Positions 13,349 through 53,954 of a DNA stretch of 64,000 nt are shown one piece after another. A program made the translations under genes and the position numbers. Source of the DNA: an uncultured Gammaproteobacteria bacterium (lineage in GTDB: Bacteria; Patescibacteriota; Microgenomatia; Levybacterales; GWA1-39-11); NCBI GenBank assembly GCA_964406795.1, contig CAYOTA010000004.1:46877-110876 (forward strand), in the 5' to 3' direction. Below the pieces are notes generated by a model. The model had not been told where the DNA came from, did not search any database, and worked only from the letters and a program-made list of their open reading frames with translations. The stretch's first letter is position 1. The number at the start of each line of letters is the position of its first letter.

Positions 13349-13354
13349 GGGTTA

Positions 13355-13386: not shown

Positions 13387-13414
13387 GCGCGCCGCAAGCG
13401 GCAGGATGCGATTT

Positions 13415-17157: not shown

Positions 17158-17188
17158 AATGTCCTTCGGCAGCACTACTTCGGATTCG

Positions 17189-17431: not shown

Positions 17432-17443
17432 GACTATTGTCGT

Positions 17444-30826: not shown

Positions 30827-33800
30827 TCACGCGAAGGGGACGGTCAGGGTCGGGGTGTCGAACGCGAGGATGTCGGCAGTAACGCCCCGGCTCTGCCCGT
30901 TACCGTCGCAGATCGTGATGTCCCATCCGTGCCACGTGTCGTGCACGGTCAACCCCGGCGATTCCAAACGTCCCGTGAATGATTGACAGGTCACGGTCTC
31001 GACCGTGGTCGGGCGCCAGCCAAGCCAAGGACCTCCGGGAGCGATCTGCCACGTATCGCCGTTGCATTCCTCGCGTTCACCAATGTCCATCGTCGAAAAT
31101 CTGGTCCAAGTGACGTCCCTCCTCGTCATTCGCATCATGAACGATGGGGAGTCATTGAACAGGCTACGCCACGTCTCCGGAAACGCCTCGGTGATGTCCG
31201 AGTTTTCAAGATTCCACCGGAACTCAACAGCCTCACGATAGGTGTAGAGCACCCAATTCGATCCGTCGCAATCGCCATTCAGCCACGACGATGACTCAAC
31301 ACCTTCCCCTACCGTGTCCATCCACGTGCCAAGGCTTGGGTCAGGCGCCACCGAACCGCTGCCGGCAGTCAGCCACACCTCGGAAGTTCCATCGCACGGC
31401 ACGCCGCCTCCAGTTGCATCCACCGCACCGACTGGATCATATCGCTCCCCTCGGTTCCGGCGCATCTGCGGAATCGCCGGGACCATCACGCGCACGGTCG
31501 TAAGGAGGTTTACAGCCGATGACAGTTCATTGAACTGGCTGGCCATCGCGTCCGTGTTTGGCAACGGACCAAATCCTTGCTGGTTCTCGCCACCAGAAAC
31601 GTCCTGAGGAATGGTCGTCATCCACCGGTTGCCGAACGCTTGGAGACAGAGGTTTTCGAAGCTGAAGTCAAAGGTCGAACTCGTGCTGTGCTCGCATGCG
31701 TAGCTCGCCGTCGTCTCCCCATCGACGTACCCCTCGCACATCGCACGGAGGTAAAGTTCCATAACTCGGAAAGCATCGTGCTCAAATCTCGTGTCATGAA
31801 CATTCTGCGCATCGTTTCCATCGTCGTATGGTTCAGGAATCAGTTTCGTCAACCGCAATGTAGGGTAGCATGACCCAAACGGATTGTCGGGTAATCCTGA
31901 CGCAACACCGTTGATCGCCTCATCGCCGATGCGGACCTGGCAATGCGTGCCGTTTGTCTGGTGGACGAGGTAATCTCTAATTCCGTTCTCGGCAGTTCGG
32001 TATTCCTCGTTTCCAAGCGTAATAAGGTCCCATGACGCGACATCGCGAGGAATCACAGAATCCGCCGAATCACAATGGTGCAAGCGTCCAGTCAACGTCA
32101 CCCTAAGCACCTCGTCGTGCGTTGTCCCGCTGTCCCATTCCACGCTCTCGATCTCAATGTCCGGCTCATAGATGCGACAGGAGCGGTAGAAGTTGGCGCG
32201 ATACGCCTCGCACGTCGGGTCTCCAAAGCAAAGGGTCGTGTTCGCGTTGGAAATTCCACCGACCGTGACGCCCATTTCCGCGTAATTGTAGCCGCTTGGT
32301 GACTCCGGAGTGATGACGTATCCGCCGGCATGATTTCCGAATGCCATGTGGTTCAGAAGCATCCGGTCCCCGCCAACTTCCGGGCCATAGAAATGGCATC
32401 GGTTGAGCGTGCTCCAGTAGTCGGTGAACGCCCCCGGCTTCCAAATCGAGCTCTCGCTCGGGTGGTATGGACGAGTCTCCACCCCAAGCACCCAGCGGTT
32501 GCTGTAGTCCTGAGGTGGTGCGACCAACCGAATTCCGTCCGCGTCGTAAAGCTCGGTGCCGCCCTCGTAGGTGGTGGCTCCAAGGACCCCAACGAACTCC
32601 TCGCCCGCCTGGTATACCCGATCCTGATACCGGATGTTCCCCGTGCGTACCAGATAGCGCCGCCCACGCCGGATCTCGCCCGACGGAATCCTATCACGGT
32701 CAGGGCCAATGCCTCCCCAAGCGTCTGCAGGCGCCGAGCCAGCCAAGCCCATGACGTGCCGGCGAAAGTACAAGATCGACTTCCCGCCGCTCACCTCATA
32801 GCCAACCATCTCCTCGCGCCGGATCACCCGCACCACCTGGGAGAGCCGGCGGAACACGTCGAACACCGCGTTTTGATTCACCTCCGCCCACGCCGGCTGA
32901 GTCTCGGGCTGCCCGCTGATGTTCCAGATGCAACCCTTTGCGAAGTACGAGTCCGACAATTCAGTCGCCTGCGTTTCGTACAGACCAACTCCATCCGGAG
33001 CCCCTTGGCTGGCAAACGCCGCCCGGCAAAGCACAAACGCATCATGTATGCCCGGCTTGTACGCATACAACTCGGTGAACTCGATCAGCAGTTGCGCATT
33101 ACCGGTGTCGCGAAGCGTCAAGCTGGTTCCGAGCACCACCTTCATCTTCGGTCGCCATGCGGGCGTCGTCATCATCCAGATTTGTCGCACCGATCCGTTC
33201 TCGTCGGGCGTGATGATCTTCGACTCCACCATCGTCCCGTCGTCCCAGAGTTCGATGGTGACCGCCGAGGCCAAGTCATCGGCGACAATCAAGGCCGAGG
33301 CGCAGACGAATCCTTCCGCCCATTCGTGCACATTTCCATCTCCAGTGAACGGCACCACTGCTCCCGAAGGAGCGTTGTCACGCAATTGGACCGTCGGATA
33401 GCTCGGCTGGATCGATCCAGCCGTCTCGGTACCGATGCTCGGAGATAGGTGATATTGCGACGCGAAGAACCTTTGGAAATCGAAGGCGTTCCCAAGATGG
33501 TAGCTCTGATTGCGCCGGTCTTCAGCGGTGCCCCTAAACTCCGAGACGAACGCATTGAGCACTCGTGGGATTCCCTGGCTCGCGGTCTTGCGCAGGTACG
33601 CCTCGCCCGTGTACGGCCCTTCGATCCACTCGGTGAACGGCAAGATCGTCGCTGTCCCATCGTATTGGAACACGATGTACGCCCACGGTAGGTACGCGAT
33701 GCCTCCAACGTGGGTCGGTTCCTCGGGACAAGACCCGCTGAATGTCGCGGTCGATCCGTCCACCAAGCTCGTGAAGAACGGCTGGTAGTTCGTGATCTCC

Positions 33801-34390
33801 GGATCGACGCACGACGATGAATCGACTGGTGGTGTTGGCAAATAACCACCGTAGGCGTTCCCGTGCGGCGACGTGAGTGATGCCCTGATCTTCCAGTGCT
33901 CCCGTGCCAGAGTGAAGGCCGGGCTCGCCAGTCCTCTGGTGTTCGGATCGTAGGCTCCCCTCTGAAGTTTCGCGAGCGTCCACGCCGTCTCGTCATCAGG
34001 CTCTTCGATCAGCCACGGCAGATCATAGAACCTCGTGTTCTCGTCGTTCAGATTGATGGCCGATGCTCCAAACACGTAGGCGTTGATGAACGCCGCCACG
34101 TTCGCCCCTTCGAAGTCACCAGGACCGCTAAGCGGCCATTGGACGTCCTCGGGCTTGAGGTGCTGATAGATGGTGAAAAACTCGTGGTTCGGAGGGAACG
34201 CAAAAAATCCCTCACCCGGATTGCGAATCTGACGGCAGAGCGACAGAAGGTAGAAGAAAAGGCGGAACGTCGGATCGCCCAAGCCCGACTTGAGGCGGTC
34301 ATTGAACGCCGCGGCAAGCTGCGCGAACTGCGATGACGTGATTCGGTCACCGGTTGCAACGGTTGGCGCCCGAGTGAACGTGACGGCCAT
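30827..34390 (-). CDS. giant virion/tail-associated protein (1187 aa)
   Basis: Largest ORF of the tail module, downstream of TMP and Dit-like genes. Confidence 0.6.
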   Translation of the reverse strand: MAVTFTRAPTVATGDRITSSQFAQLAAAFNDRLKSGLGDPTFRLFFYLLSLCRQIRNPGEGFFAFPPNHEFFTIYQHLKPEDVQWPLSGPGDFEGANVAAFINAYVFGASAINLNDENTRFYDLPWLIEEPDDETAWTLAKLQRGAYDPNTRGLASPAFTLAREHWKIRASLTSPHGNAYGGYLPTPPVDSSSCVDPEITNYQPFFTSLVDGSTATFSGSCPEEPTHVGGIAYLPWAYIVFQYDGTATILPFTEWIEGPYTGEAYLRKTASQGIPRVLNAFVSEFRGTAEDRRNQSYHLGNAFDFQRFFASQYHLSPSIGTETAGSIQPSYPTVQLRDNAPSGAVVPFTGDGNVHEWAEGFVCASALIVADDLASAVTIELWDDGTMVESKIITPDENGSVRQIWMMTTPAWRPKMKVVLGTSLTLRDTGNAQLLIEFTELYAYKPGIHDAFVLCRAAFASQGAPDGVGLYETQATELSDSYFAKGCIWNISGQPETQPAWAEVNQNAVFDVFRRLSQVVRVIRREEMVGYEVSGGKSILYFRRHVMGLAGSAPADAWGGIGPDRDRIPSGEIRRGRRYLVRTGNIRYQDRVYQAGEEFVGVLGATTYEGGTELYDADGIRLVAPPQDYSNRWVLGVETRPYHPSESSIWKPGAFTDYWSTLNRCHFYGPEVGGDRMLLNHMAFGNHAGGYVITPESPSGYNYAEMGVTVGGISNANTTLCFGDPTCEAYRANFYRSCRIYEPDIEIESVEWDSGTTHDEVLRVTLTGRLHHCDSADSVIPRDVASWDLITLGNEEYRTAENGIRDYLVHQTNGTHCQVRIGDEAINGVASGLPDNPFGSCYPTLRLTKLIPEPYDDGNDAQNVHDTRFEHDAFRVMELYLRAMCEGYVDGETTASYACEHSTSSTFDFSFENLCLQAFGNRWMTTIPQDVSGGENQQGFGPLPNTDAMASQFNELSSAVNLLTTVRVMVPAIPQMRRNRGERYDPVGAVDATGGGVPCDGTSEVWLTAGSGSVAPDPSLGTWMDTVGEGVESSSWLNGDCDGSNWVLYTYREAVEFRWNLENSDITEAFPETWRSLFNDSPSFMMRMTRRDVTWTRFSTMDIGEREECNGDTWQIAPGGPWLGWRPTTVETVTCQSFTGRLESPGLTVHDTWHGWDITICDGNGQSRGVTADILAFDTPTLTVPFA

Positions 34391-38297: not shown

Positions 38298-38804
38298 TCA
38301 TTCTGTCGTTGCTTCTCTCAAGTCAAGTACCACATCCGCATTGGCTCGAACCCTCCAGATCAACCTTGGCTGTTGAACCTGCATCGCGATTTCTTGCACA
38401 TCAATCTTGCTCCATCCTTGGGACTCTAATGCCTGTTGATCGATTGCCGCCGCGCATAGCTCAGCCAGTTGCATCGCCGTGACCGGCGATGGGTTCCGGT
38501 CGTTGCGGTTCAACCGCAGTTCCTCACCAACCAAAATCTCAATCGCCACCCGCCATGTACGATTCCTTAGAAACGTGCGGCTTGGGGTTTGCACGAAGAC
38601 CGCCAATGGATCGTTCGCCCCTTCCCATACCTGAATCGCGGCCTCCAATGGTCCAACGTTCTCGCTGAATACCTTCACCGCCTGACTGTGAATCAACTCA
38701 TGATTCTCGATCAGCTTTACGACAAACGCTTGGAACGCGCCCATCGGACTGCGATAGACCGTCCGCAAGATGTCGCTGGCGAATTTGTTGTCGAGATGCC
38801 TCAC
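38298..38804 (-). CDS. hypothetical protein (168 aa)
   Basis: Clean ORF. Confidence 0.45.
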   Translation of the reverse strand: MRHLDNKFASDILRTVYRSPMGAFQAFVVKLIENHELIHSQAVKVFSENVGPLEAAIQVWEGANDPLAVFVQTPSRTFLRNRTWRVAIEILVGEELRLNRNDRNPSPVTAMQLAELCAAAIDQQALESQGWSKIDVQEIAMQVQQPRLIWRVRANADVVLDLREATTE

Positions 38805-39028
38805 GGCTTAGGACCTTTCTGACCGAAGTAAAACCCAAGCGCAAGAAGTCCCATGGAATACAGAGGCTCGGTCACCTCAATGCGAAGCACCGACATTGCG
38901 CAGATCGTCCAGACAAGAAACAGGGACAGCCAAGCACGGATCGAGATTCCGAAGGCAACGCTGGTAGTGCCTTCGGATTCCGAAGCTGTCGCGATCTCCT
39001 GAACTTCAACCTTCGGATCTTCGGTCAT
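38801..39028 (-). CDS. small two-TM membrane protein (75 aa), holin-like
   Basis: Hydrophobic segments FGISIRAWLSLFLVWTICAM and LYSMGLLALGFYF. Confidence 0.4.
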   Translation of the reverse strand: MTEDPKVEVQEIATASESEGTTSVAFGISIRAWLSLFLVWTICAMSVLRIEVTEPLYSMGLLALGFYFGQKGPKP

Positions 39029-39416
39029 GTTTCCTCCGTAGTTTCAGAAGTCGATCCACGCTTTCGTCGACTTCGGTCTGCATCTGCGGTTTGACCTCCC
39101 CGTCCAATAAATCGCACAGCCGTTGTAGGCTGCGTGCAGTTTCAACAGCCGCCACCTGCGACTCGTGCGCCATGATGTCCTTGGCCCGGCTCTGCCACCA
39201 CGCGAACGCCATCGCGCAGAAGCTAAACACAACCGCAAGGTAGGTGACACCGCTGCTCTCTGCCTTCTCGGCAACCGTCAGCGCAGCCTTGGTGGCCATC
39301 TCGACCTGAGCCACGACCGCCGCACCGGTGAGCACCAGTGCGATTGCCCAGAGGACAAACGACGCGGCTGGTCTGATCTTGCCTTGCATGGCCCACCTTG
39401 CCTCGTTGTTGCTCAT
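39006..39416 (-). CDS. membrane protein (136 aa) with two TM segments and C-terminal coiled coil
   Basis: AASFVLWAIALVLTGAAVVA and YLAVVFSFCAMAFAWW segments. Confidence 0.4.
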   Translation of the reverse strand: MSNNEARWAMQGKIRPAASFVLWAIALVLTGAAVVAQVEMATKAALTVAEKAESSGVTYLAVVFSFCAMAFAWWQSRAKDIMAHESQVAAVETARSLQRLCDLLDGEVKPQMQTEVDESVDRLLKLRRKHDRRSEG

Positions 39417-39884
39417 TTCGCCTCAACCTCCGGTTGCGGTTTCGACGGATCGTCCACCGGGGCCAGCGTCCACTTCATGCCCGCGGGAGGCTCCATCTGG
39501 TTCGGCGGAATCTGGATGCCCTTGGATGCGGCCATTCCGCGCATTCCCGTCTCAGCCAGCCTCAAAGCGCCAAGGCCGACCACAGCTTGGGATTCAGCCT
39601 GCGCACGGGAAGCCTCGACGGCAGCGGCGGAGACGGTGCTCTGGTACCCCTCCAACACCAGACCCTCCCATTGCAGGCGCTTGATCGTCGTGTCCTTCGG
39701 GTTCGCGATGCGCACCACGTTCGTCCCGCGCTGAATCACGATGTCCGTGACAACAACCGGCTTCGGGCTGGCGCACCCCGTCGCCATGGCGAGCAAGGAG
39801 AAGAGGAGCGCCAGGGCGAAGATGCCCACAATGACGCGGAACAGGTTCCGGGGATGGTTGGGGAGTTGAATGGATGCGTTCATG
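39413..39884 (-). CDS. lipoprotein (157 aa)
   Basis: Signal peptide ending in lipobox LAMATGC; ATGA overlaps. Confidence 0.55.
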
Positions 39885-40919
39885 CGTTGGAGCAGTTGAG
39901 GATTGAACCCTTGCCGCTGATGAGCGCGCCCTCCGGCAACCGGCTGTTGGCGACGATCAGCGGCGCGTTGCTGCTCGTCGCTCCGGACACCGCCCACACC
40001 CGCGTCGCGGTCGAGCGGAAGTCGCAATCGAAGGCGAGGACGGCCCCGGTCTTGCCGCTGCCGACTTGGTCCCAGATTTCGACGATGCGCGCATCTCCGG
40101 CGCTGTCCGCAAGCACATCGGTCTCGACACCGCTCATGGTGACGTTGCCCTTGAACGTGTCGTCCCCGGGCTTCACTACGAGCGACAACACGCGCTCCAC
40201 GCCGCCGGTCACGGTCACGTACTCGATCTCGATCCCGTCAGTGCGTCGGGTGTCGTTGTAGATCAGATTCCGCAGCTTGCCATTCACCTTGGCGTTGCTG
40301 ATCCGAACCCGCTCGTTCACGCCGAACGCGAACCAGTTCCCATCCCCGATGTCCACGAGCACGTCTTCGCACGTCGTGGTACCCGTCCCGCCGATGTGCC
40401 CGAAGTTGACGGCAGACACGTACGATTCGGGAGCGCAGTCGATGAACTTGATGTCCTTCAACTTCGACGCCCCGGCACCGATTAGGGACAGCGGGAACGC
40501 CTCGACTTGGTTCGCATAACCGCCGCGGCAGCCGCCGAACTTCATCTCCTCGAGTTCACAGCAATACCCTCGTAGGGCGGCCTTCACCACGGAATCCATC
40601 CAATTCCGGTAATCGCCGTTGATAAACCCTCCGACCCACTTGGCGCCCTCGCCGTGCGTCATCACCCACACGTCTTTGCCTTCCCGAGGCTGACCGTCGA
40701 GCGACCGGGTAGCGTCCGGGTGCAGTCGAATCTCCCACGGACCGTCATTTGGGCGAACGACGCAGCCAGGGGCCAGCACGCGCTCCCAGTTCGCTCCGTG
40801 CCACCACACGCCACGGGTCCAGTGCACGCCGGATTGCAGCACGAACTCCGTGCCCGGGCGCCGGTTGTCGAACAGGGCCGCGTCGAGGTCGTCGGACGTG
40901 GAAAGATGGATCTTCACGG
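39880..40919 (-). CDS. right-handed beta-helix-like protein (346 aa, GTG start)
   Basis: Repetitive NxxVxxS / TDGIEIEYVTVTGG-type rungs; GTGA overlap. Confidence 0.4.
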
Positions 40920-41372
40920 GCGACGAAGCAGGAAGTCCACGCGGTTGGTTCCCAGCATGGCCTGGAAGGCGGGGATGGCGGCGGTGACGCGGGAGTTGGT
41001 GGGGTCCAACGCTTCCTGGTAGCTGGCGCGGAGCAGGAAACGGGCAAGCGGCACGTTGGCGCCCGGGAACGCCACCTGGATCAGGGTAGCCCACTCCTCG
41101 TCGGTGAGCTCGGCGAACACGCGGGCCACCGGAATCGTGTAGGGCGGCGGCACGACGATGGAGCCGCCGCGCAGCCAGTTGGTGCCGTCCTGGACATCGC
41201 CGGACCGGACCCAGACGGGGAGCTCCACCGCGCCCTCCGCGCGCTCGGCGTACGGGCGAGGAACGCCCACGATGCCGTTGGTGAGCTGGGCCCAGTGGGT
41301 CTGCCCGAGAGCCAGCCCAGTGACGAGAGCAGAAGCAACGAGACCGAACAGAAGTTCACGTTTCACCATCAC
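40914..41372 (-). CDS. secreted protein (152 aa) with N-terminal signal peptide
   Basis: MMVKRELLFGLVASALVTGLALGQT signal peptide. Confidence 0.5.
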   Translation of the reverse strand: MMVKRELLFGLVASALVTGLALGQTHWAQLTNGIVGVPRPYAERAEGAVELPVWVRSGDVQDGTNWLRGGSIVVPPPYTIPVARVFAELTDEEWATLIQVAFPGANVPLARFLLRASYQEALDPTNSRVTAAIPAFQAMLGTNRVDFLLRRP

Positions 41373-44300
41373 TTGAATCCTCCGTGTTGGGTGGTTGCGA
41401 CGATGTTCGTGGACGCGGTGTCGAAGGCTAGGCGGACCACGATCAGGTTGTTCGTCGAAAGATCGATCGTGGTTTCAACCCCCACGACGTTGCGGCTGGT
41501 GACCGTAGCTGCACTTGCCCACGCGCCAAACCCCACCGTTGGCGCGCTGGCGTTCCCTCCGGTGAACGTCGCCGACGTTTGCACCTTGTCCGAGGCAGTC
41601 CGGGCGATACTCACCGCAAAGGTCAGCGGTCTGGGCGTGAAGGCGCTGGCGATCGATGGCACCCCCACTTGGAGGTTTGTCTCGGTATTGACCAGCACCC
41701 CGAAGTTGCCCGTGACGGCGGACGCGGAGTTGTCCAACCGGACCACGATGTCTCCCGAGACCACGTCGCCGACGTTCGGCAAGTTGACATCGCTGATATT
41801 GAAACTCGTGATGGTTCCCCAGGAGGTGGAATTGGTGATGATCACCGTGGGCGTGATGCCGCCAATCGTGGGGGCTACGGGCACGTACGCGCTGGCATTG
41901 GTGCCGCTCTTCTGCCACCTCACGTTCATTGCCCCAGACGGTGCGGCTGGAGTCGAGTCGTTGAGGTTGTACCGCCGCCCGTCCTCCGTGCCGTCATTGT
42001 TCACGTACAATGGCGGCGTGATCTCTGAAACCTGAATCACGGCGTTGGAGCCAACTCCGGTGACCTGCCACAGCCAGGTGGGAAATAGATCGACCGACTG
42101 GATCTTGAGCCGGGTGACGTTGGTCACCTCCGCGGCGAAATCGTCGGTGATGGTCAGCGGCGATCCGCCACCGCCGCCGCCCAACTCCGCGGCCCACGAC
42201 CCGTTCTTCCGCACATAGCCCGTGCCGTCGCTTGGGGCGTCCGCGACCTCGGCCATGGCGGCGAGACCGAGGCTGGAGCGCTGAGCGGCCGCATTGGCGG
42301 CGGTGAGCAGGGCGCGACCCGCGGAAGTGCTGTCGGAGACCTCGCTGGCGGGGTGCGTGTGGCTGGCAGGAGTGCGGGCATCGCTCAGCCGGGTGTCGGT
42401 GCCCAGCACCACCTCGTTGGTCGCGGCGTTGCCGCTGGCCGGCACGTTGCGCGCAGCGGCGGTGCCGGCATCGGAAATCGTGCTGAGCGCCTGGGTGCCG
42501 GTATGGTTGGCCCGGGCCCGGTCGGCGGAATGATAATGCAGGCTGGTGTCGCCTCCGCCCACGAGATCAGAGGCCCCGCTCGCCGCGGCGATGGCGGCGA
42601 GATCGGAGTCCGCCGGCTGAAAATCGAACGAAGTCCACGCACCGTTCTGACGGGCGTAGTAGGACGAGTTCGTGGGCGCGTCGTCCTTGCGCGCCATGGT
42701 GCCCAACGCGGGGTCGGTCCCGGTGTAGAGTAGTCCGTACGACGCGCTGCGCATGATGCGGGCCCGGGTGCCGGAATCGTACAGGTAGAGCAGCACGCCC
42801 GACTCACCGGTCGCCGAAGGCGGGCTGGCAGAGAGAAGGGTTGTCCCCGAGACGCCGACGTCGACGGTGGCGTTGGTCCGCGCGGCGTGGACGGTGACGC
42901 CGTCGGTGTCGGAGTTGTCGTTGAGGACCATGCGGCCCGCAAACTGGCCGGTGTAGTCGCGCGAGAAGACGGCGATCTGGCCGGAGGCGCTGTTGGTCGT
43001 CCCGACGTTGATTTGGACGGTAGCAAGTGCCGCCGGCCCCCCGCTTTTGTTCCAGACCTGAAACCCTCGCTGGGCATTGGTCTCCACGGTCATGGCCCAC
43101 GGGTAGGTCGCAGATTGCGACGCGAGGGCTGTCCGGATCGCCTCGGTGGTGAGTTGGGTGGAGTCGATCCTCGTTTCGCTCAGACCCACGACCGGTTCCA
43201 CCTGCACGACGGAGGCCCGAATGTTGTTCACCAACACCACGTTGGTGCCGCCGACGCACCGGATCTGGCCATCGTAGAGGACGCGATTGATGTCGCCCCG
43301 AACATCGGAGGCCCCGACCAGAACGATGCCCAGCACGCTGGCCGGATTGATCACGCGGTTGAGCTGGAGATCGAGCCCGGTGATGTCGGTCGCCTGAATG
43401 CCGGCCTCGAAATTCTGCGTGCCGACGATGGTCACGTCGGTGACGGAGAAGTCCCGCCAGCCCAGATCGGTCTCGGCTTGGCCGCCAAAGAGAATGCCGA
43501 ACGAGGAGGAGGTGCCGCGACATCCCGAGATGGTGCCGCCGGAGATCCGCATTGAATCACCGCTCAGTCGGATTCCGACGTCGTTCGCGCTGCTCCCGTA
43601 CTCGCTGATCGTGTTCCCGCTGATCGAGGTTTCGGAGTTCCAGAAGGTGTTGGGGGAGATGCGAGTGTACCCGGCATCGATGCCATGCCGGCCCGCAAAA
43701 CGGATCGTGTTGCCGCTAACTACGGTGCCGAGGCCGGTGATCCAGTTGGTCGTGCCCGACCCCCATTTATTGGTGCTGAGGTGATATTCCCGCGTGCCCA
43801 CGGCAGGCACGGCGTGGATCGGGAAAGCGGCAATCCCAAGGCCAACGTTGGTCATGACGTTGCCGCTGATGATGTGATCCGAACCGTGCGCCTTGATGCC
43901 GGTGCCGCGCGTCGAGAAGACCCGGTTGCCCTTGATGGTGGAGGGGCCGGCGGCCACGAGGTAAACCCCGTTGTCGCCGCACTCCTGGATCAGGTTCTGT
44001 TCGACGTTGAGGGTGGGCCAGTCGTTGGTCTTGTTGAGCGCGCAGACCCCCTGGCCGGTGCCGAAGATCTCGTTGTCGATCGCCTTGCCCGAGCTATCGC
44101 GGGTGACGATTCCGGCCCCGTTGTTGATGCCGCTGACGTAGTTGGTGTGGCGCCAGAAGCCGGTGATCTGGCTCCGGCGGACGGCCCACGTCTCTCCCCC
44201 GTCGATGGAAATGCCGGTGGATTTCCCGAGGACCGCGACGCGCTCCGCCGAAAAGTTGGTGACGTTTTGGGCGAAGAGGGCGATGCGATCGAAGCCGACG

Positions 44301-44886
44301 TCGCTCACGAAGGTATCCGCCGTTTCGGAGCCGAGCAGGCGCAGGCCTTCGATGCGGACATTGTCCGCGGCGACGCGGACGAGGTTTGTGAGGATGGACA
44401 GCTCCGCGATGGTCCCCTTGCCCTGGAGCGTCTGCCCCGCGCGGGTGACGACCAGGGGGGAGCCGATCCAGTGAGTGCCTTCGGGGATCTCCAGCGTGGC
44501 GGGGCCGGCATCCAGCGCAGCCTGGAGGAGGGCGGCCTGGTCATTCGTGGCGTTGGGCCGCACCCGATACCACCGGGTGTCATGCACCAGGTTGGATCGG
44601 TCGGGGAAGATCCACCGGCCCGTCCAGCTTCCGGACCCGAAAACGAACAGGTTGGTGCTCTCGGCGGAGGCGCGGTCGAAGGCGAGCAGGCGGAGGGGAA
44701 ACTCGTTGCGCTGGGAAAGGCCCGAGACCCAGATCTCGGCGCGGCCACCTTTCGAGACCGCCGCGGGTTCCAGGGCCAGGACCTCGTCCACGGTGTCCAT
44801 GGCCCGGACGGTGCGGACGTCCGGTGCGGCGAAGGCGCTGGCCAAGAGGGCGAGCCATAGCCCGAGAATGGAAGCGATGGTCTTCA
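41369..44886 (-). CDS. tail fibre/tailspike-like protein (1172 aa) with N-terminal signal peptide, parallel beta-helix region and HxH fibre repeats
   Basis: MKTIASILGLWLALLASAFAAPD; beta-helix rungs such as GNRVFSTRGTGIKAHGSDHIISGNV; HYHSADRARANHTG and ASHTHPASE repeats. Confidence 0.6.
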
Positions 44887-44888
44887 TG

Positions 44889-45389
44889 TCATCCCGATAT
44901 CCAGGTTCGAACCGCGTAGGCATCGCCGTCATCCGTTTCCAACACGCTGTCCCCGTTGTCCGACAGACTGCTGGCGGCGGGATCGGTTTTCAAGATCAGT
45001 TGCCATCCGCTGATAATCCCGTCGCTGCCATAGCTGTTGATCGTTCCGGCTTGCGTCCAATCACCGCTACTTTCCGCCAACAAAGCGGCAATGTTGGCAT
45101 ACCAGAATGATCCGATCTGCGCTTCGCTGCCCCCCACGCGAATCTCGTCCAACGTGACGGTTCCTGATCCTGGCAGCAGTATCAGGTAAGGACGATTCTT
45201 TCCGACTTCCACTTGGTAATACGATGGCCCTCTAAGACTGGTGCTCAACGCTCCTGCCGTGACAGTGACGGTTACCGGTGCATGATCGTCACCAGTCAAA
45301 CCTCCGATTCTTCCCCATGCCGTGAAACGGATCGAACCGCTCCAGTTGGCACCGGAGTCGTCTTTCATCGTCTGAGCAATGGTTGTCAT
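44889..45389 (-). CDS. hypothetical structural protein (166 aa)
   Basis: ATGA overlap upstream. Confidence 0.45.
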   Translation of the reverse strand: MTTIAQTMKDDSGANWSGSIRFTAWGRIGGLTGDDHAPVTVTVTAGALSTSLRGPSYYQVEVGKNRPYLILLPGSGTVTLDEIRVGGSEAQIGSFWYANIAALLAESSGDWTQAGTINSYGSDGIISGWQLILKTDPAASSLSDNGDSVLETDDGDAYAVRTWISG

Positions 45390-45958
45390 TGTGATGCTGC
45401 GGTTGCTCCTCGAATGAACGCTCCTTTAATCTGCCGATCCGTTGGCATCGTTCCCGGCCAAGGACCTTGCGTTACGCTGTACTTGAGAAGGTAATACCTC
45501 ACAAGCACCTTGTTCTTCTTGCCGGCAAGAAAAGCGTGTCCGGATTTGCTTCTCATCACGAACAGCTTCACGCCCTCGACCAAAGCGAGGAACGATGCGC
45601 GAACAGCGTAGGCCGCTGGATGAATCGGAATCGTCAGCGCCTTCGCACTCTTCGGACGGATCGTTCCTCCGCTGATCTTGTGCCCGAGTCGATAGTCGTG
45701 ATTGGCAATCTCGACACGACCCTCGGATCGAAATGACCTCACCGACTCCAAGCTTTCGGCGATGGTTCGCCAGAAATGCGTTCGTCGCGCACCTCCAGTC
45801 AACTTGTTCGGCTCCCGTCGGTCTTTCGTCATCCAGTGATCAACCAGAAGACGCCTCACATTCACGCTTCCATGACGCAGCATGTTCGCGCCAAAGCCTT
45901 CCAGACGCTCGCGCTGTTTCTTCGTCCCGTCCGAAATCTTGAACTTCAGTCTGATCAT
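45386..45958 (-). CDS. hypothetical protein (190 aa), possibly virion-morphogenesis-like
   Basis: Position in the Mu-like head module. Confidence 0.35.
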   Translation of the reverse strand: MIRLKFKISDGTKKQRERLEGFGANMLRHGSVNVRRLLVDHWMTKDRREPNKLTGGARRTHFWRTIAESLESVRSFRSEGRVEIANHDYRLGHKISGGTIRPKSAKALTIPIHPAAYAVRASFLALVEGVKLFVMRSKSGHAFLAGKKNKVLVRYYLLKYSVTQGPWPGTMPTDRQIKGAFIRGATAASQ

Positions 45959-46737
45959 CGCTGGGTGAGAATTCCGGCTCTCGTGATGCGATAGCCTCGT
46001 GGATCGTCCTGATTTAAACTGTCGAGCAGGGCCTTGCGAAGGTCCGGTTGATCGACCAACAGCGCCGCACGCCGGACTGGAACGAATTCGCTCGGCGCCT
46101 GTCGCTCCTGCTTCGGGCGCTTCAACCCGACCGCCGCGCCTTCGGTCGTGGTGAGGCTGCGCACGCCCATCCCGGAGTTGAAATCAAACGGCGGATACGG
46201 CAGTTCGAACCGACTGATGGCCGTCCAGATTCCGTCGTTGATCGGCGCGACAAACCTTCGTCCGCGCACTCGGCCACCAGCGGACCTCCATCGGCTGATC
46301 CAATCCCGAGGCTCTTTCCGTGGCGATTGTCGGTACATCTCCCAAAACGGACGCCGCCCGAGGTTCTCTTGGGCCGCCACTCGCTTTCCATACCCTCGCG
46401 CCATCCCAACGTTCGTCCGAATGATCAGGTCCGTCCGCGCCTCACTCGCGAGATCTTCGATGGTCCCTTCCTTGCCTTCCGGTGCCTTGTACCCCGTACC
46501 CTTGACGTACTTCTCCAAGGCCAGCCTCGCGTCCTCAGGCTTCTTCTTTCCGGTCACGACATCCAGGGCCAGCCTACGAATTCGCCCAAGCACCTCGGTC
46601 TTGACCACCTTGGCCGAGAACACAGCTTGCTGCCGGATGTTCGACGAAATGCCTTGAAGCTCATCCGACGAGAGCGTGGCCGGGATCGTCCGCGATCCAC
46701 GCAGCTTCTTGAGCGACGCTTCCAAGGACGTTTTCAT
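45955..46737 (-). CDS. hypothetical head-module protein (260 aa)
   Basis: ATGA overlaps. Confidence 0.4.
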   Translation of the reverse strand: MKTSLEASLKKLRGSRTIPATLSSDELQGISSNIRQQAVFSAKVVKTEVLGRIRRLALDVVTGKKKPEDARLALEKYVKGTGYKAPEGKEGTIEDLASEARTDLIIRTNVGMARGYGKRVAAQENLGRRPFWEMYRQSPRKEPRDWISRWRSAGGRVRGRRFVAPINDGIWTAISRFELPYPPFDFNSGMGVRSLTTTEGAAVGLKRPKQERQAPSEFVPVRRAALLVDQPDLRKALLDSLNQDDPRGYRITRAGILTQR

Positions 46738-47198
46738 GAGCCTTCCTGCGATTCACGGTCCCACTTGTCGGTCGTGAAATAGTCGTAGACCACCGGCACA
46801 TCCGGAAGCGTTGAAGCGATGGCACCGGAATCCGGCGCAATGACCTTCAACTTTCCTTCGGCGATCCGCTCCATCAGGCGCATCGCGTCCTTGTACCCAT
46901 CCCGCCTGGGATTGGCCTCACCGTCAATCACCTGACCACCGGAGCGCGCCATCAGCCTCCAGACGATGATCGCCACCGTCGGGTCCACCAGAGTCTCCGG
47001 AACCGTGCTGACCGCCCCAAGGATGTTTGGTCGATGGGAAGCGATGGCACCCCGCACGAAGTCCACCACCGACGTGATGATACCGGTTGTCGGATCGGTG
47101 TCCCCCGGCTCCGTGCCGTTCTGATAGACCGCCGTGAACTCCCGAGCCGAAAGCTGGCCCTTGATGTCGGCGACCGTGATTGCTCTCCAGTTCGGCAT
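46734..47198 (-). CDS. DUF1320 (Mu gp36-like) head-tail connector-like protein
   Basis: Size and position; weak motif similarity. Confidence 0.35.
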   Translation of the reverse strand: MPNWRAITVADIKGQLSAREFTAVYQNGTEPGDTDPTTGIITSVVDFVRGAIASHRPNILGAVSTVPETLVDPTVAIIVWRLMARSGGQVIDGEANPRRDGYKDAMRLMERIAEGKLKVIAPDSGAIASTLPDVPVVYDYFTTDKWDRESQEGS

Positions 47199-47305
47199 GG
47201 AAGTCAGTCCTGAAAATCAAACCGGGGGGCTGCCCACCTCTGAAGGCAACCCCCCGGCCCCATACGATGCGACTCGCTTTGTCCAGAATCAGGGCCGGTC
47301 GTGCA

Positions 47306-47839
47306 TCACCTGGTGCCAGCGGCGGTCGTCGCAAGACCGCCCCCGAACGGCACACGGATCGGCTGTTTGCCGGCGATGGTGAACGCACTGAGCGTCGCGA
47401 TGTTCGTCGCCGAATTGACGTACTGATTGAACTTCAGATACCCGGCCCCTCCGAGGTTCATGTTCGTCGCCCACGTGATGATATTCGTCCCGCTGTAGGT
47501 CAGAAGCAGGGTTGTGGTTGCCGTGGTCTCGAAGGTCGTTCCATCGAACGATCTGTGCACCGGGATCGAGAGCGTCGCCGTGTTGACGTTCGTGTTGGCC
47601 AACGTTGCCGTGATCTGAAGGTATGCGACATCGAAATCGCGCACGTCGATCACCGCCGTATTGGTCGCGGTCGTGCTCGCCGCGATAGTCGCCGGCTTGT
47701 TCGGCACCGCCGGGGATTGGTAACCGAACCCAAGGGCGAGATTGGTGGTCGTCGCCGTGGCCGTAGGCGCCACTCCGAAAGCGATGGCGATCATGGCCAT
47801 CGCCAGCACGCCGAACAAACTGAAGGTCTTGTTTTTCAT
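47306..47839 (-). CDS. secreted Thr-rich protein (177 aa) with signal peptide
   Basis: MKNKTFSLFGVLAMAMIAIAFGVAP followed by T/A/N-rich sequence. Confidence 0.5.
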   Translation of the reverse strand: MKNKTFSLFGVLAMAMIAIAFGVAPTATATTTNLALGFGYQSPAVPNKPATIAASTTATNTAVIDVRDFDVAYLQITATLANTNVNTATLSIPVHRSFDGTTFETTATTTLLLTYSGTNIITWATNMNLGGAGYLKFNQYVNSATNIATLSAFTIAGKQPIRVPFGGGLATTAAGTR

Positions 47840-47885: not shown

Positions 47886-48815
47886 TTAGCTCGCGCTGAA
47901 GTTCAGCCGCAGGATGGCCCCGGAGTTGACGGCCTTGATGTCGCGACTCCAGTCAAACCCGAACACCTCGCCACGACCGTCGGTGGTCGTGTACGCCCGC
48001 GGCCCGAGCCAGCGTCCCATCTGCCGAAACGTCTTGAGCGCGCTCGAATCCGTCCGCGTCGGCTGACTGGATGCCCGAAACACCAGCACCGCCGAATCGA
48101 GAAGGAAGGCGTAGCTGGCCGTCTGCCCTTCGTCCGCCGTGTCGTAGATCATCTCCGACTCCATGATCTCCGGGGATCCGACGAACAGGCTGCGAGCCAT
48201 CTCAATGCTGACGTTCGGAACCGCCTTGCTTCCCGCGGCGACAAAGCGCGAACGCACGAACGCGCAGTTCTTGAACAGCCGCCACGCGGTCGGTCCAAAC
48301 AAGATGCGGTTGACCATCCCGGACCCACCCGGAGCCGCCTTGCGCACGTTGTTGATCAGCGTGTCGATCTGGTCCACGGGATCGACGGCGTTGACGTTGA
48401 CGCCCGTCCCGGCACCAGCAGTCGAAAGCGCCAGATCGATGGTCGATTTCTCGTGCTCCATCGATGCCACCTCAGCCGCCAAGTCCGCTGCCTCCATCGC
48501 GGCGTTCATACCGACTTCGCCGGCCTCGGCGATCTCCTGCTGATCGAGCGGCACGTCGATCGCATGCGGCTGGCAGTTGTAGGTCCCGTCTTCGGCGCTG
48601 AAGCCGATGCGAGCGGCGGTACCTCCGGGAGTGCGGCGGGTGTCCGGAAGCTTGAACCGATTCTTGGCAGTGAACACCTTGTAACGTCCCGTGACAGAAG
48701 CCACAGGCACAGTCGGTGCGAGGAAGTTGCCCACCGGCTGAAGGTGGCGTTGACTGGCATTCTGCGCGTATTCGAGCAGAACCGGATTGGCGGCGAGACC
48801 GGAAAGAAGACTCAT
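47886..48815 (-). CDS. major head protein, Mu gpT-like (309 aa)
   Basis: Size and position after the I-like protease/scaffold and small Z-like gene. Confidence 0.55.
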   Translation of the reverse strand: MSLLSGLAANPVLLEYAQNASQRHLQPVGNFLAPTVPVASVTGRYKVFTAKNRFKLPDTRRTPGGTAARIGFSAEDGTYNCQPHAIDVPLDQQEIAEAGEVGMNAAMEAADLAAEVASMEHEKSTIDLALSTAGAGTGVNVNAVDPVDQIDTLINNVRKAAPGGSGMVNRILFGPTAWRLFKNCAFVRSRFVAAGSKAVPNVSIEMARSLFVGSPEIMESEMIYDTADEGQTASYAFLLDSAVLVFRASSQPTRTDSSALKTFRQMGRWLGPRAYTTTDGRGEVFGFDWSRDIKAVNSGAILRLNFSAS

Positions 48816-49320: not shown

Positions 49321-50445
49321 CTACTTCTGATTCGCCATCAGTTCCCGGTTGGCGGCGATATACGCCTCGGAAGGCGTCATCCGGTTCTTCGCCATCAGTT
49401 CGTTCGCCCTGGCCGAGACCCGCGTCGCATGCTCTTCGGTGACGGTGTTCTCGTCCGCATCGGGATTTCCGGGATTCTTGCCGGACCGATTGTGCACCGG
49501 CTTCGGCACCGTCTTGGTCTCGACACCAGCATCCTTCAGAAGCGCCAGCGTTCCATCGCGGTCGGCGATCAGCCGCGCCTTGATGGCGTCGCGATTCTTG
49601 ATCGCCGGCCCCAGGTTGGCGAGGTCCTGTTCAGCCACGGCCTCCCGGAGCTTTCCGACTTCGGTTTTCAGCGCGTCACGTTCGCTCTTGAGCGCGTCAC
49701 CGGCAGCAGTAGCGACGGTCAGGCGGTTCTTCACCTCGGCGACCTCGGCGGGCAGTGCCGCGAGCTTCGGCTTGGATTCGACGTACTTGTTGGCCGCCGC
49801 CTCGATTTCGGCGTCAGGCGTGGTATCAGGGATGTCGAGCATCCGGCAGAGCGCTTTCTTGTAGTCCATAGTGGTGATTTCGGTGTGTTGGTTGTCGCGA
49901 TTCGTGACCGGCTTCATCCCCCTCATGTTCGGCGCGTTGGTCAGGGCGATGCGCGTAAAGCGCCGGGGTCGCTTGCGTCCACCGCCAAGATCCTCGAAAT
50001 CTTCCAGCACCGGGCTGACCAATCGAAACGCCCCGCCCTCCACCGCCTGTTGACCCGGAACGGACCATCGGACCTTCGCCCACAGACCGTCGTCCCGGAC
50101 CTGAACGTCATCGATCCATCCCATCGCCTCAGACGTCAACTTCGGGTCGTGGCTGAAATGATCGCGATCCACCAGCATCCCCGGCCAGTCCTCACCAGCA
50201 TCCTCCTTCGACTTCAGGAACGACGCCTGAATGGCTCGCACTGTCACGGGGTCAATGACCTGGGTGCCGACCTCGGGATGCTCGAACTCGCCGAGCTTGA
50301 GCACCTGAATCCATCCGTCGTCAGGTAGCGCGAAGGCTGCGCGGTTCAGCGCCGTGCCTGTCCCATTTCGGACAGGCAAAGCAACTGGTGTTCCGTAGGC
50401 CGTCATCTCAACGGCCTTGTGCGACCGTTCGACGGCATCCGTCAA
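49321..50445 (-). CDS. Mu I-like head maturation protease/scaffold
   Basis: N-terminal domain with IQVLKLGEF-type motif followed by a long coiled coil. Confidence 0.6.
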   Translation of the reverse strand: MTDAVERSHKAVEMTAYGTPVALPVRNGTGTALNRAAFALPDDGWIQVLKLGEFEHPEVGTQVIDPVTVRAIQASFLKSKEDAGEDWPGMLVDRDHFSHDPKLTSEAMGWIDDVQVRDDGLWAKVRWSVPGQQAVEGGAFRLVSPVLEDFEDLGGGRKRPRRFTRIALTNAPNMRGMKPVTNRDNQHTEITTMDYKKALCRMLDIPDTTPDAEIEAAANKYVESKPKLAALPAEVAEVKNRLTVATAAGDALKSERDALKTEVGKLREAVAEQDLANLGPAIKNRDAIKARLIADRDGTLALLKDAGVETKTVPKPVHNRSGKNPGNPDADENTVTEEHATRVSARANELMAKNRMTPSEAYIAANRELMANQK

Positions 50446-52050: not shown

Positions 52051-52127
52051 TGGGGGCGGGAGCCGGATTTGAACCGGCGGCCTGAACGTTATGAGCGTTC
52101 CGATCTACCAGGCTGATCTATCCCGCC
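52051..52127 (-). tRNA. tRNA-Met (anticodon CAT)
   Basis: Cloverleaf folded by hand: acceptor GGCGGGA/TCCCGCC, D stem GATC, anticodon stem GAACG/CGTTC with loop CTCATAA, T arm GCCGG-TTCAAAT-CCGGC, encoded CCA. Confidence 0.85.
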
Positions 52128-52508: not shown

Positions 52509-53954
52509 TCATCCTTCGAGCGCCCTTTCCGGCGCTGTACTTCCAGACGATGCACCATCGGCGCTCCACGTCCAACCCTTTGCCATCACCCCGAACGCCC
52601 CCGAGAGCGTGTCCACCTGATCATCGTGCGCGCCTTGAGGGAAGGCATCGCACTCCCCGATGAACGCATCATTCCATTCGCCGCGCACCAGACGGACGCT
52701 CCCATGCTCCACCTGAGGCGAGACGAACTGCGCCCGTTCGACCTTGCCCGTCCTCGGCACCGGGTTGAACCTGAGTCCTAGATGCGGGAACGTGCGGAGG
52801 TAGTGCGATACCTCGACCTTCCCTGCCTGCCCAGGGTCGGTTTCCAGCCACGTCTCTACCTTCGACCCGTCCAGCTTTGCCGTCGCTTCAATCGTCGCCT
52901 CGACCTGCGCGGGTGTTCCGCGCATCCGTCGAACGTCCATTACCCACCACTGGCCGTTCTTGCCCTTCCCAAGCTTCAGCCCCGTCGTCCAATCGGGGTC
53001 GGTGTTCTTCTTCGTCACGTCCGAGGCTGCCCGGTCCCAATACCTCACCACCCTGACGAGACCTGCCGGCGCCGCGTCGTCGATCCGCCACCAGTCGCGC
53101 TTCAGGATCATGCCAGCCGTTGCCCTGACCGACCAATCTCCAAGCTCAAGCTGTTGCCGAAGCACGTGCCCCAGTCCGCGGAGCCTCGTCAGATACGTTG
53201 GATCGGTCTTCAGCAGCGGCGCGTTGTCGGTCAGCAGCGCCGGAATGAACGTCACGCTCGTTGCCGAGTTTGGCCCGTGATTCCGTTCCGCCTCATCCTT
53301 CGTCGCGTACCACAGAAACTCATCTCGCTCGCGCACCATCCACCGGAGCACACCGGCCTTTGACCGGTCCGGAAATCGTCCTTCGTCATCCAGCCACCAG
53401 CGGATAAAGCCCTTCACCCAGCTCTCGCTGTCGGCATTACAGGTCGCCCGCATCGTCCCCGGGATGCCAGTCGTCGAACGGTTGCGGGAGAGCATGTACA
53501 GGAATTGCTCCCGCGTGAAGTGCGTCAGCTCATCGAACGCAATAAGCGGCACCTGACTGCCCTGCAACGCCCCGAGCGCCGCGTCGTCCTCCAAGTGCCG
53601 AAAGGATACCGTGAACCCGTTCGGCCAGCGCCAGATTTTCTTCCCCGGGTAACCGGTCCCGCCCGCCCACGGATAGAGCTTCACCGACGAATCCCAAAGC
53701 CCACCCGGGAGCGTTATCTGCGCCCCCACCCGTCGAAAGATCAGGCAATCGAAGTTCGGAACGTTCCTTCGCTTCAGCGGATCTAGAAGCAGTCCGAAAG
53801 TTTTTCCTCCACCGGCGCTTCCTCCATAGATCGCGATATCAGCGGCGGTCCGTAGAAACTCGTACTGCGGTCCGGGGTTCGGCTGGATCTTGATCGGGTT
53901 CGGCATTGATCGGCTCGATAATGAACTTCTGGATGTTTCGATAGGCTTCCGCAT
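52509..53954 (-). CDS. terL: terminase large subunit
   Basis: Walker A GGSAGGGKT, Walker B IAFDELTHF, C-terminal nuclease motif AHDDQVD. Confidence 0.85.
   Translation of the reverse strand: MRKPIETSRSSLSSRSMPNPIKIQPNPGPQYEFLRTAADIAIYGGSAGGGKTFGLLLDPLKRRNVPNFDCLIFRRVGAQITLPGGLWDSSVKLYPWAGGTGYPGKKIWRWPNGFTVSFRHLEDDAALGALQGSQVPLIAFDELTHFTREQFLYMLSRNRSTTGIPGTMRATCNADSESWVKGFIRWWLDDEGRFPDRSKAGVLRWMVRERDEFLWYATKDEAERNHGPNSATSVTFIPALLTDNAPLLKTDPTYLTRLRGLGHVLRQQLELGDWSVRATAGMILKRDWWRIDDAAPAGLVRVVRYWDRAASDVTKKNTDPDWTTGLKLGKGKNGQWWVMDVRRMRGTPAQVEATIEATAKLDGSKVETWLETDPGQAGKVEVSHYLRTFPHLGLRFNPVPRTGKVERAQFVSPQVEHGSVRLVRGEWNDAFIGECDAFPQGAHDDQVDTLSGAFGVMAKGWTWSADGASSGSTAPERALEG

Follow-up and report, generated by a model that had tools for sequence, protein, structure and literature searches.

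Particles of tailed phages are held to assemble entirely in the cytoplasm, and the exported phage proteins known to us so far are lysis proteins, exclusion lipoproteins and morons. To our knowledge, phage tailspikes (P22, Sf6 and others) are made without a signal peptide and join the particles in the cytoplasm, and we know of no decoration protein with a signal peptide. Small receptor-blocking lipoproteins (Llp of T5; Cor of T1, phi80 and N15) are encoded beside receptor-binding or tail-fibre genes, and in the Rz/Rz1 lysis pair the i-spanin gene stands before the lipoprotein gene. Here, a stretch of 64,000 nucleotides ('the window'; contig CAYOTA010000004.1 of assembly GCA_964406795.1, positions 46,877 to 110,876 of the forward strand) was analysed, which holds a tailed phage, so far uncultured, whose portal and protease are Mu-like. 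An earlier note on this DNA had assigned classical N-terminal export signals to four proteins of the structural region: a 1172-amino acid (aa) tailspike-fibre, a 152-aa protein encoded after it, a lipoprotein and a Thr-rich 177-aa protein encoded after the major capsid gene. All four signals were found on the minus strand at these N-termini and recurred in homologues, and they are conserved features of a gene set that is shared by several phage backbones.

The fibre resembles the tailspike depolymerases of P22, Sf6, HK620, CBA120 (TSP2), Fri1 (gp49) and Pam1 in that a beta-helix follows a small N-domain and the gene lies in the structural region; it differs in that a predicted cleavable signal for general secretion (Sec) replaces any extra particle-binding N-terminus and a long fibre/foldon region comes after the helix. 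With WceF, AmsF and WcaM it shares a tailspike-like beta-helix sent to the periplasm by an N-terminal signal. WceF is a bacterial periplasmic, tailspike-like exopolysaccharide (EPS) depolymerase, a trimeric beta-helix with tailspike-type N-terminal domains, and was proposed to trim polysaccharide during periplasmic transfer (PMC7949094). It is, however, chromosomal, belongs to an EPS biosynthesis cluster and carries a twin-arginine translocation (Tat) signal, whereas the present fibre belongs to a phage late operon, is coupled to a partner and has a short Sec-type signal. In phages of Porphyromonas gingivalis, proteins of unknown function have Sec signals whose cleavage exposes Gln (PMC10367356; Q-rule, PMC5837995). 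The Gln at position +1 of many of the present signals recalls this, but the P. gingivalis proteins are small potential outer-membrane modifiers, whereas here tailspike-fibres and capsid-linked proteins are concerned, and the G+C content of about 60% is high for Bacteroidota.

Export signals in the structural region

Signals were called with a heuristic hydrophobicity and cleavage-site scan, and conservation among homologues served as surrogate for a trained predictor. The best 12-residue Kyte-Doolittle mean starting in the first 20 residues was computed for 56 candidate minus-strand genes. Only 5 of the 56 reached a value of at least 2.0 (scores 2.3–3.1), namely the four named proteins and a 136-aa protein with two transmembrane (TM) segments; the remaining window genes stayed at or below 1.71. 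All five strongly hydrophobic N-termini lie within 39.0–47.8 kb. The four named proteins have a basic n-region, a hydrophobic core and either small residues at -3 and -1 or a lipobox. With a slash for the predicted cleavage site, the three sites without lipobox are AFA/AP in the fibre (MKTIASILGLWLALLASAFA/APD), ALG/QT in the 152-aa protein (MVKRELLFGLVASALVTGLALG/QT) and ATA/TT in the Thr-rich protein (MKNKTFSLFGVLAMAMIAIAFGVAPTATA/TT), and core hydrophobicity is 2.3–2.7.

The starts that include the signals are coupled by 1–4 nucleotides (nt) to the upstream stops (fibre, 152-aa and lipoprotein genes), and downstream in-frame starts are not conserved, which argues against the possibility, raised in the earlier note, that the true starts lie downstream of the hydrophobic segments. 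Dual starts that would give isoforms with and without signal were also considered and rejected, as the internal Met is not conserved. Of the coordinates in that note, those of the Thr-rich gene (47306-47839) were right, and three others needed small corrections (fibre start 44887; lipoprotein end 39883; start of the 152-aa protein GTG 41372 or ATG 41369).

In 15/15 Thr-rich proteins and 7/7 syntenic fibres the signal was kept in character at near-zero sequence identity. About 50 proteins, from five or more unrelated families, showed the same architecture, with lipobox Cys, Tat motif, sites at -3 and -1 and frequent Gln at +1. Because the signals are conserved in homologues, chance and mis-called starts are excluded, and the four N-termini are very probably genuine export signals, three of the Sec/signal peptidase I type and one of the lipoprotein type. 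That signals on fibre and head-module proteins are atypical, as had been remarked in the earlier note, agrees with the absence of any counterpart in 50,697 deposited phage records.

The tailspike-fibre and its partner protein

Fibre residues 224–353 matched the Pfam families Beta_helix (E = 9.4e-9, 35.5 bits, cut-off 25.9) and NosD (E = 1.4e-9, 38.1 bits, cut-off 23.6); Fibritin_C-like and head-fibre PHROG segments were found in the C-terminal half. In an AlphaFold2 model of residues 21–640 (predicted local distance difference test, pLDDT, 75.9; predicted template modelling score 0.76) a small N-domain is followed by a long right-handed beta-helix. The best Foldseek matches of this model in the PDB were the tailspikes of Pam1, Fri1 (gp49), CBA120 (TSP2), Det7, Sf6 and HK620 (E = 3e-9 to 1e-6), and alginate epimerases and polysaccharide lyases came next; a search of the PDB by sequence gave no match. 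Judged by the model, the N-terminal half of the fibre can with high confidence be assigned the tailspike-type depolymerase fold. The pectate-lyase-like beta-helix of the earlier note, which had named structure prediction as a check, was thus upheld by Pfam, AlphaFold2 and Foldseek; of its 'HxH repeats', two HxH motifs exist (HYH at residue 784, HTH at residue 843), but they form no repeat array. A longer fibre open reading frame (ORF) from an ATG at 44932 would overlap the upstream gene by 44 nt; it has by coincidence the same length as the 1187-aa ORF at 30827-34390.

The syntenic fibres of related loci (L001, L002, L004, L008, L009 and L011 in our numbering) range from 925 to 2481 aa, and a short signal stands at the start of each (MRALLFLALCLPALG/QT and MRNFLLLALFLMTGLAALG/QG are examples). 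An exhaustive phmmer search with the mature fibre N-domain (residues 21–156) against 1.84 billion representatives returned 20 proteins, in about 16 of which the domain starts at residue 20–35 behind a typical signal; a word-indexed protein search with a four-sequence alignment of the fibre N-terminus gave no match. Overall, a signal was present in about 20 of 22 proteins that have this N-domain. P0031, a canonical tailspike homologue, has the same N-domain internally, after a phage-type N-terminus of 170 residues. The fibre itself has no separate particle-binding domain between its signal and the pre-helix N-domain, and a signal-less partner is always encoded directly upstream, with the two genes abutting or overlapping, in the relatives as well. 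A motif for periplasmic O-glycosylation in Bacteroidota (D-[ST]-[AILVMT]) was not present in the Thr-rich protein, occurred in the fibre no more often than by chance, and was dropped.

The C-terminal 70 aa of the 166-aa partner are 41% identical to the whole of an 84-aa protein encoded upstream of the signal-bearing fibre of L013 (E = 3e-12), and over 134 aa the partner is 37% identical to the protein encoded upstream of the tailspike of L021 (E = 1e-23). That the C-terminal module of the partner might be a copy of the fibre N-domain was also considered; hhalign returned the expected register with a probability of 2.4%, which is not significant. L021 and the window have further homologues in common, namely a MuF-like protein (36% identity, E = 1.6e-47), the tube-like 142/153-aa protein (E = 3.5e-17) and proteins of 190, 213 and 306 aa. 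In L021 the tailspike gene comes after that of the partner; its product starts with the N-domain itself (MTQIVATGAVPVRTVR), lacks a convincing signal and is thus probably signal-less, as far as the reading of its start allows. Its post-capsid gene encodes a Bbp16-like protein (weak Pfam match) with no signal, and L021 has none of the genes for the small protein, the lipoprotein and the membrane proteins. Since L021 is syntenic, has the same partner and encodes a tailspike with no convincing signal, the exported fibre would descend from an ordinary virion tailspike; it is best read as the orthologue of a tailspike-plus-partner pair of the usual cytoplasmic kind that gained a signal.

The protein encoded after the capsid gene

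Thr makes up 18.6% of the 177-aa protein. Its family comprises 13 proteins among 5.8e9 and two from IMG/VR; throughout these 15 the hydrophobic N-terminus is free to vary, and the mature part has 44 invariant positions. AlphaFold2 predicted, with modest confidence (pLDDT 60.6), a helix at residues 4–22, disorder at 22–43 and an eight-stranded sandwich, for which Foldseek gave weak matches to TNF-like and jelly-roll lectins, carbohydrate-binding modules, the receptor-binding domain of lambda gpJ and tail-needle knobs.

The Thr-rich gene lies 46 nt past the capsid gene and occurs in each of the 15 relatives. The 46-nt gap yielded no sigma-70-like promoter, with the proviso that the sigma-70 consensus may not be that of the host. 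A GC-rich hairpin of 13–15 bp with a T-run follows the gene in 7/7 loci folded (window, L001, L002, L004, L008, L009 and L011); it had been missed by a simple terminator scanner and was found when intergenic regions were folded. By this conserved element, the capsid transcription unit is predicted to end with the Thr-rich gene. L014 and L020, whose capsid gene is unrelated, encode after it a protein of about 165 aa that is rich in S, T and N and bears a signal but is not homologous; membership of the L014 protein in the Thr-rich family was considered and not supported.

In being a small beta-sandwich encoded right after the capsid gene and co-terminated with it, the Thr-rich protein is like the cement and decoration proteins (the jelly-roll Bbp16 of BPP-1, gpD of lambda), but it lacks detectable homology to them, and the agreement extends to position and general jelly-roll fold only. 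As a Bbp16-like cement protein it was rejected at the level of sequence: hhalign against the Bbp16-like protein of L021 gave a probability of 0.3%, and none of the 13 members matched Pfam Bbp16 at E up to 10.

The small protein, the lipoprotein and the membrane proteins

The signal of the 152-aa protein is preceded by GGAGGA 7–10 nt upstream of the start. In L008, L011 and L013 a homologue is encoded after the fibre, and the signal is present in 3/4 family members. The next gene had been listed as a 404-aa ORF (39880-41094), which was corrected to 345 aa; L008 and L018 encode homologues of its product (335 and 353 aa, respectively) ahead of the lipoprotein, and the ATGA coupling of the 345-aa and lipoprotein genes occurs in the window and in L008. 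The lipoprotein family has an invariant Cys in 13/13 members with a hydrophobic stretch ahead of it, and Gly at -1 in 12/13; 9/13 members also have the n-region motif H-P-R-N-L-x-R-V-I (window 39836-39883), unusual for such a region. The lipoprotein gene adjoins fibre or tailspike-like genes in L008, L013 and L018. In L018 (GCA_964608505.1, 1438-3041, 70% G+C) the pair of lipoprotein and 353-aa protein stands ahead of the genes for tail chaperone and tape measure, and its surroundings hold neither TM nor lysis genes. L018 has a different tail module, with a distal tail of the phiJL001 gp84/BR0599 type, and it follows that these two genes are mobile as a unit by themselves.

The Thr-rich, 152-aa and 345-aa proteins, the lipoprotein and the TM proteins gave no match in Pfam, PHROGs, NCBIfam or PADLOC, and no muralytic domain (lysozyme, amidase, peptidase) was found in any of the four signal-bearing proteins. 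The lipoprotein gene resembles those of Llp and Cor in lying beside fibre genes, an analogy that holds for gene neighbourhood alone; it differs in that its product has no match in the four collections just named and is expressed within the late block. By this analogy the lipoprotein would most likely mask or block an outer-membrane receptor, as Llp of T5 and Cor do. The neighbourhood also recalls the spanins (lambda Rz/Rz1) and holins, for the lipoprotein gene lies beside genes for inner-membrane proteins, among them small two-TM holin-like proteins. What differs from spanins is that the order of genes is reversed and that an i-spanin with a periplasmic coiled coil, be it embedded or overlapping, is missing: the lipoprotein gene stands in front and is followed by two-TM holin-like proteins in the window, or by proteins with TM segment, basic stretch and PAS-like domain in relatives. 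The lipoprotein pair of L018, which has no membrane or lysis gene nearby, argues against a spanin as well, and the lipoprotein is probably not one.

TM proteins occupy the slot of the 136-aa protein in L008, L011, L013 and L014. Those of L008 (19426-20049), L011 (16207-16860) and L013 (14095-14670) consist of an N-terminal TM segment, a basic stretch and a PAS-like domain, for which the positive-inside rule suggests a cytoplasmic location. At a holin or lysis-regulator position, such membrane proteins may be sensor-coupled lysis-timing proteins. The PAS-type protein of L008 is followed by a candidate endolysin, a permuted papain enzyme that is YaeF-like.

Recurrence of the cassette

Signal-less partner, signal-bearing fibre, small protein, lipoprotein and membrane proteins form a cassette that was found in at least three unrelated head-module backgrounds (the window lineage, L013, and L014/L020); the cassette moves between phage backbones. 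In L014 (JGI 3300020036 contig, 9109-19510) export is predicted for nearly all of the fibre-like module: a 445-aa capsid-like gene is followed by a signal-bearing 167-aa protein, a 106-aa partner and five proteins with Sec or Tat signals, among them a LamG-domain protein with a textbook Tat motif (MNRRSFLK). This module has six export-signal proteins in a row, and after it come a 78-aa lipoprotein and two TM proteins. L001 and L011 have, in addition, signal-bearing enzymes of about 1010 aa in the same slot; a GH5-like NEP motif was read by eye in the former, and the latter gave a weak match to Pfam Glyco_hydro_10.

The earlier note had considered morons for these genes. Like the morons with export signals (Lom and Bor of lambda), exported proteins are encoded within the late or structural region, and a terminator follows the Thr-rich gene. 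They are not four independent units, however. The fibre, 152-aa and lipoprotein genes belong to one conserved cassette. Start and stop codons of the fibre gene and its neighbours overlap or abut those of flanking genes, unlike in autonomous units, and different lineages have kept the set. A conserved terminator ties the Thr-rich gene to the capsid gene, and the lipoprotein is linked to the 345-aa protein.

Discussion

The explanation that we favour, though tentatively and with slightly less than even confidence in it as a whole, is that in this phage group accessory proteins that face outward are sent across the inner membrane and added to the particle at lysis. These would be the tailspike-fibre, the small protein after it, the extra glycan-binding or glycan-cleaving proteins of relatives and the jelly-roll protein made with the capsid protein. 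The fibre would be translocated unfolded by Sec, lose its signal, and fold and trimerise in the periplasm, where it could cut host surface polysaccharide during polymer assembly or export. It would meet the particles built in the cytoplasm only once holin-like proteins and endolysin merge the compartments, and the signal-less partner on these particles would be its docking site. Docking of the fibre onto virions at lysis through the retained partner is a real possibility, if one we hold with some reserve. It is favoured because the partner is retained and coupled to the fibre, because of the orthology with L021 and because the distal domains are of fibre type; the link between jelly-roll and capsid expression, and modules such as that of L014 with signals on nearly every fibre-like protein, point the same way. 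Extended to the group, a still more tentative reading would have virion assembly split over two compartments throughout an uncultured phage group, probably in one host clade: capsid, tail and docking partner would be made in the cytoplasm, and tailspike-fibres, lectin-like proteins and the capsid-decorating jelly-roll protein would pass by Sec or Tat to the periplasm. There they would mature by signal cleavage, possibly with pyroglutamate N-termini or other modification, and possibly trim host glycan before lysis, to be added after the compartments merge.

Several observations weigh against docking and against a virion role of the exported proteins. We know of no tailed phage that adds periplasm-matured proteins to its particles, nor did the literature search bring one up; exported proteins and particles could mix only in the time that separates holin action from rupture of the outer membrane. 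The signal-less 1187-aa tail protein (30827-34390), a candidate central fibre or receptor-binding protein, could fill the receptor-binding role, and the exported fibre need then not be on the virion. The Thr-rich protein has no detectable homology to cement or decoration proteins, and the signal-bearing GH5-like and GH10-like proteins in the same slot of L001 and L011 look like free enzymes. The L013 copy of the 152-aa protein has no signal and starts at the mature part, and in L021 an alternative upstream ATG would add to the tailspike a weakly hydrophobic stretch interrupted by Gln (best 12-residue mean 1.72).

In a rival reading the exported proteins would never join the virion and would act as free late envelope effectors, which has a considerable chance of being correct but falls short of being probable. 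Tailspike-derived and GH-type enzymes would strip or trim the capsule, EPS or O-antigen of the infected cell from the periplasmic side and after lysis, and the jelly-roll protein and the lipoprotein would mask receptors, so that superinfection and loss of progeny on debris are prevented and release is eased. A cleavable Sec signal separates the proteins from cytoplasmic assembly, and here it directly precedes the module that in P0031 is internal, after the 170-aa N-terminus of particle-binding type; the same slot holds the GH5-like (by the motif read by eye), GH10-like and LamG lectin-like proteins with Sec or Tat signals, and the cassette abuts the lipoprotein and holin-like genes. The signal-less 1187-aa tail protein as an alternative, the missing precedent for post-lysis assembly in the literature search and the existence of WceF as a bacterial periplasmic tailspike-like EPS depolymerase (PMC7949094) fit as well. 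A free enzyme, on the other hand, would have no use for the approximately 550 residues of fibre, foldon and distal domains that the fibre keeps, nor does such a role explain a signal-less partner retained in every lineage, abutting or overlapping the fibre gene, and also encoded beside the L021 tailspike. The signals on almost the whole fibre-like module of L014, and a signal-bearing small protein after the capsid gene in two unrelated head modules, likewise speak for docking over free effectors.

The neighbourhood of holin-like genes could alternatively mean that the locus is an enlarged lysis cassette, with lipoprotein and TM protein as spanin pair, holins, and exported or signal-anchor-release (SAR)-type lytic enzymes for extra envelope layers. 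Two holin-like two-TM proteins encoded directly after the lipoprotein, the candidate endolysin of L008 two genes further on and the TM proteins after the cassette in L011, L013 and L014 are in line with it. It is nevertheless improbable: the signal-bearing proteins lack a muralytic domain and have clean A-x-A or G/Q cleavage sites, not SAR-type anchors; with the lipoprotein gene ahead of the TM gene, the order is opposite to that in Rz/Rz1, and in L018 the lipoprotein gene, flanked by the gene for the 353-aa protein on one side and those for tail chaperone and tape measure on the other, is away from TM and lysis genes; the mature lipoprotein has 120–145 aa and is partly helical as read from its Ala-rich sequence; and the basic stretch after the TM segment suggests cytoplasmic PAS-like domains, not periplasmic coiled coils. 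Less probable still, to the point of being very unlikely, is that the hydrophobic N-termini are no export signals and represent start artefacts, cytoplasmic membrane tethers or propeptides for a prohead protease. The fibre does have an in-frame Met29, and signal-like N-termini on capsid proteins of P. gingivalis phages were taken as protease-removed (PMC10367356). But the signal-including starts are the ones coupled to upstream stops, no conserved start lies downstream of them and in L008 and L002 none lies near the cleavage site, and lipobox Cys, Tat motif, sites at -3 and -1 and Gln at +1 would serve no purpose in a cytoplasmic tether.

The finding is a genuine and conserved variation on things already known, namely exported accessory proteins of phages and tailspike depolymerases, with a substantial chance that it represents an undescribed way of finishing virions. 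If docking at lysis is true, part of the virion is finished outside the cytoplasm; if the proteins are free effectors, tailspike-derived periplasmic enzymes form a new class of late auxiliary function. Either way, the prediction of receptor-binding proteins from metagenomes is affected, where signal peptides usually count against a virion role, as are depolymerase mining and the modelling of host range and exclusion.

Database searches and clues to the host

Alignments of the capsid protein and of the fibre N-domain were scanned against 185,579 species genomes with no match. Among the deposited phages (the 50,697 records named above) no homologue of the Thr-rich protein or of the fibre N-domain was found; matches to the large terminase subunit (TerL) were taxonomically scattered, and the closest capsid match with a known host, at 24% identity, was an Akkermansia phage without the export-signal feature. 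A scan of IMG/VR with the 306-aa tail protein gave no match, and a literature search returned no description of signal peptides on tailed-phage fibres.

Gln at +1 after an allowed -3/-1 site was present in 12/22 fibre-family signals, in 5/12 signals of other cassette proteins and in 2/15 Thr-rich signals. Under the Q-rule of Bacteroidetes a mean of 71% of signals have Gln at +1, and most other groups studied remain below 10% (PMC5837995). The G+C content of related contigs (52–67%) and the occasional GGAGG upstream of genes give no clear pointer to Bacteroidota. The frequent Gln after the cleavage site may nonetheless provide a clue to the host clade from sequence only.

Genomic context

Tailed phage genes occupy about 17–64 kb of the window and all lie on the minus strand (table 1); G+C content across the window is 58–70%. 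Most proteins of the phage had no family match, and the phage is therefore very divergent. In gene order, terminase, tRNA-Met, portal, the 374-aa and 137-aa proteins, major capsid protein and Thr-rich protein are followed by a Mu gp36-like adaptor, a minor head protein and the 190-aa and 166-aa proteins; then come fibre, 152-aa protein, 345-aa protein, lipoprotein and two small membrane proteins, and finally tube-like, chaperone-like, tape-measure-like and distal tail genes including the second giant protein of 1187 aa.

Table 1. Positions of the features discussed, in window coordinates; residue numbers refer to the protein concerned.
Feature	Position	Strand	Remarks
Large terminase	52509-53954	-	
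tRNA-Met (CAT)	52051-52127	as phage genes	between terminase and portal
Portal, 522 aa	50464-52032	-	
374-aa protein	49321-50445	-	counterparts in relatives match Mu-like_Pro_N
Major capsid protein	47886-48815	-	no signal; phrog_1005 major head protein, E = 1.2e-30
Thr-rich protein, 177 aa	47306..47839	-	directly after major capsid gene
Thr-rich protein, predicted Sec-type signal	47753-47839 (residues 1-29)	-	then flexible linker and jelly-roll beta-sandwich
Intrinsic-terminator-like element	47213..47257	-	right after Thr-rich gene; GC-rich hairpin (13 bp), then TTTGATTTT
Partner, 166 aa	44889..45389	-	no signal; immediately upstream of fibre gene
Tailspike-fibre, 1172 aa	41369..44887	-	starts at 44887, not 44886; 1 nt past stop of upstream gene
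Fibre, predicted Sec signal	44828-44887 (residues 1-20)	-	
Fibre, conserved N-domain	residues ~21-110		
Fibre, right-handed beta-helix	residues ~120-560		
Fibre, region with HYH/HTH motifs	residues ~740-900		foldon-like GYVRKNGSW
Fibre, C-terminal beta-rich domain			after fibre region
151/152-aa protein	40914..41372	-	start GTG 41372 or ATG 41369, both overlapping fibre stop
345-aa protein	39880..40917	-	no signal; GTG 40917, GTGA overlap with upstream stop
Lipoprotein precursor, 156 aa	39413..39883	-	ATGA overlap with 345-aa gene
Lipoprotein, predicted signal	39776-39883 (residues 1-36)	-	
Lipobox A-T-G/C, lipidated Cys37 (predicted)	39773-39775	-	...LLAMATG/C
136-aa protein	39006..39416	-	two TM segments (hydrophobicity scan), charged C-terminal tail, holin-like topology
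75-aa protein	38801..39028	-	two TM segments, holin-like
1187-aa giant ORF	30827-34390	-	end of tail module; no signal, no family match

The 522-aa portal of the window is not fused to a topoisomerase; in L008 (4782-6905), L009 (4704-6908) and L010 (59-1381) Portal_Mu is fused to Top1B_N_bact and Topoisom_I, that is, to a bacterial-type topoisomerase IB. No endolysin was recognised anywhere in the window, and no integrase was seen among the ORFs scanned in it. Replication and regulation genes encode a helix-turn-helix (HTH)/Lar-like protein (19645-20229), an IstB/DnaC-like ATPase (22491-23318) and an HTH_36 protein (23315-24550). Positions 1-18000 have a G+C fraction of 0.64–0.70 with a dip to 0.59 at 8–10 kb (structural region about 0.60); the long ORFs of this part largely lack Pfam matches and could belong to the phage or to a host flank, and a C-5 cytosine methylase is encoded at 10487-11866. 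Shine-Dalgarno-like motifs of the GGAGG type stand ahead of the genes for the 152-aa (41372-41390), 136-aa (39417-39440) and 75-aa (39029-39045) proteins. The well-spaced capsid and Thr-rich genes have A/C-rich leaders without GGAGG, a mixed initiation signal that may aid host assignment.

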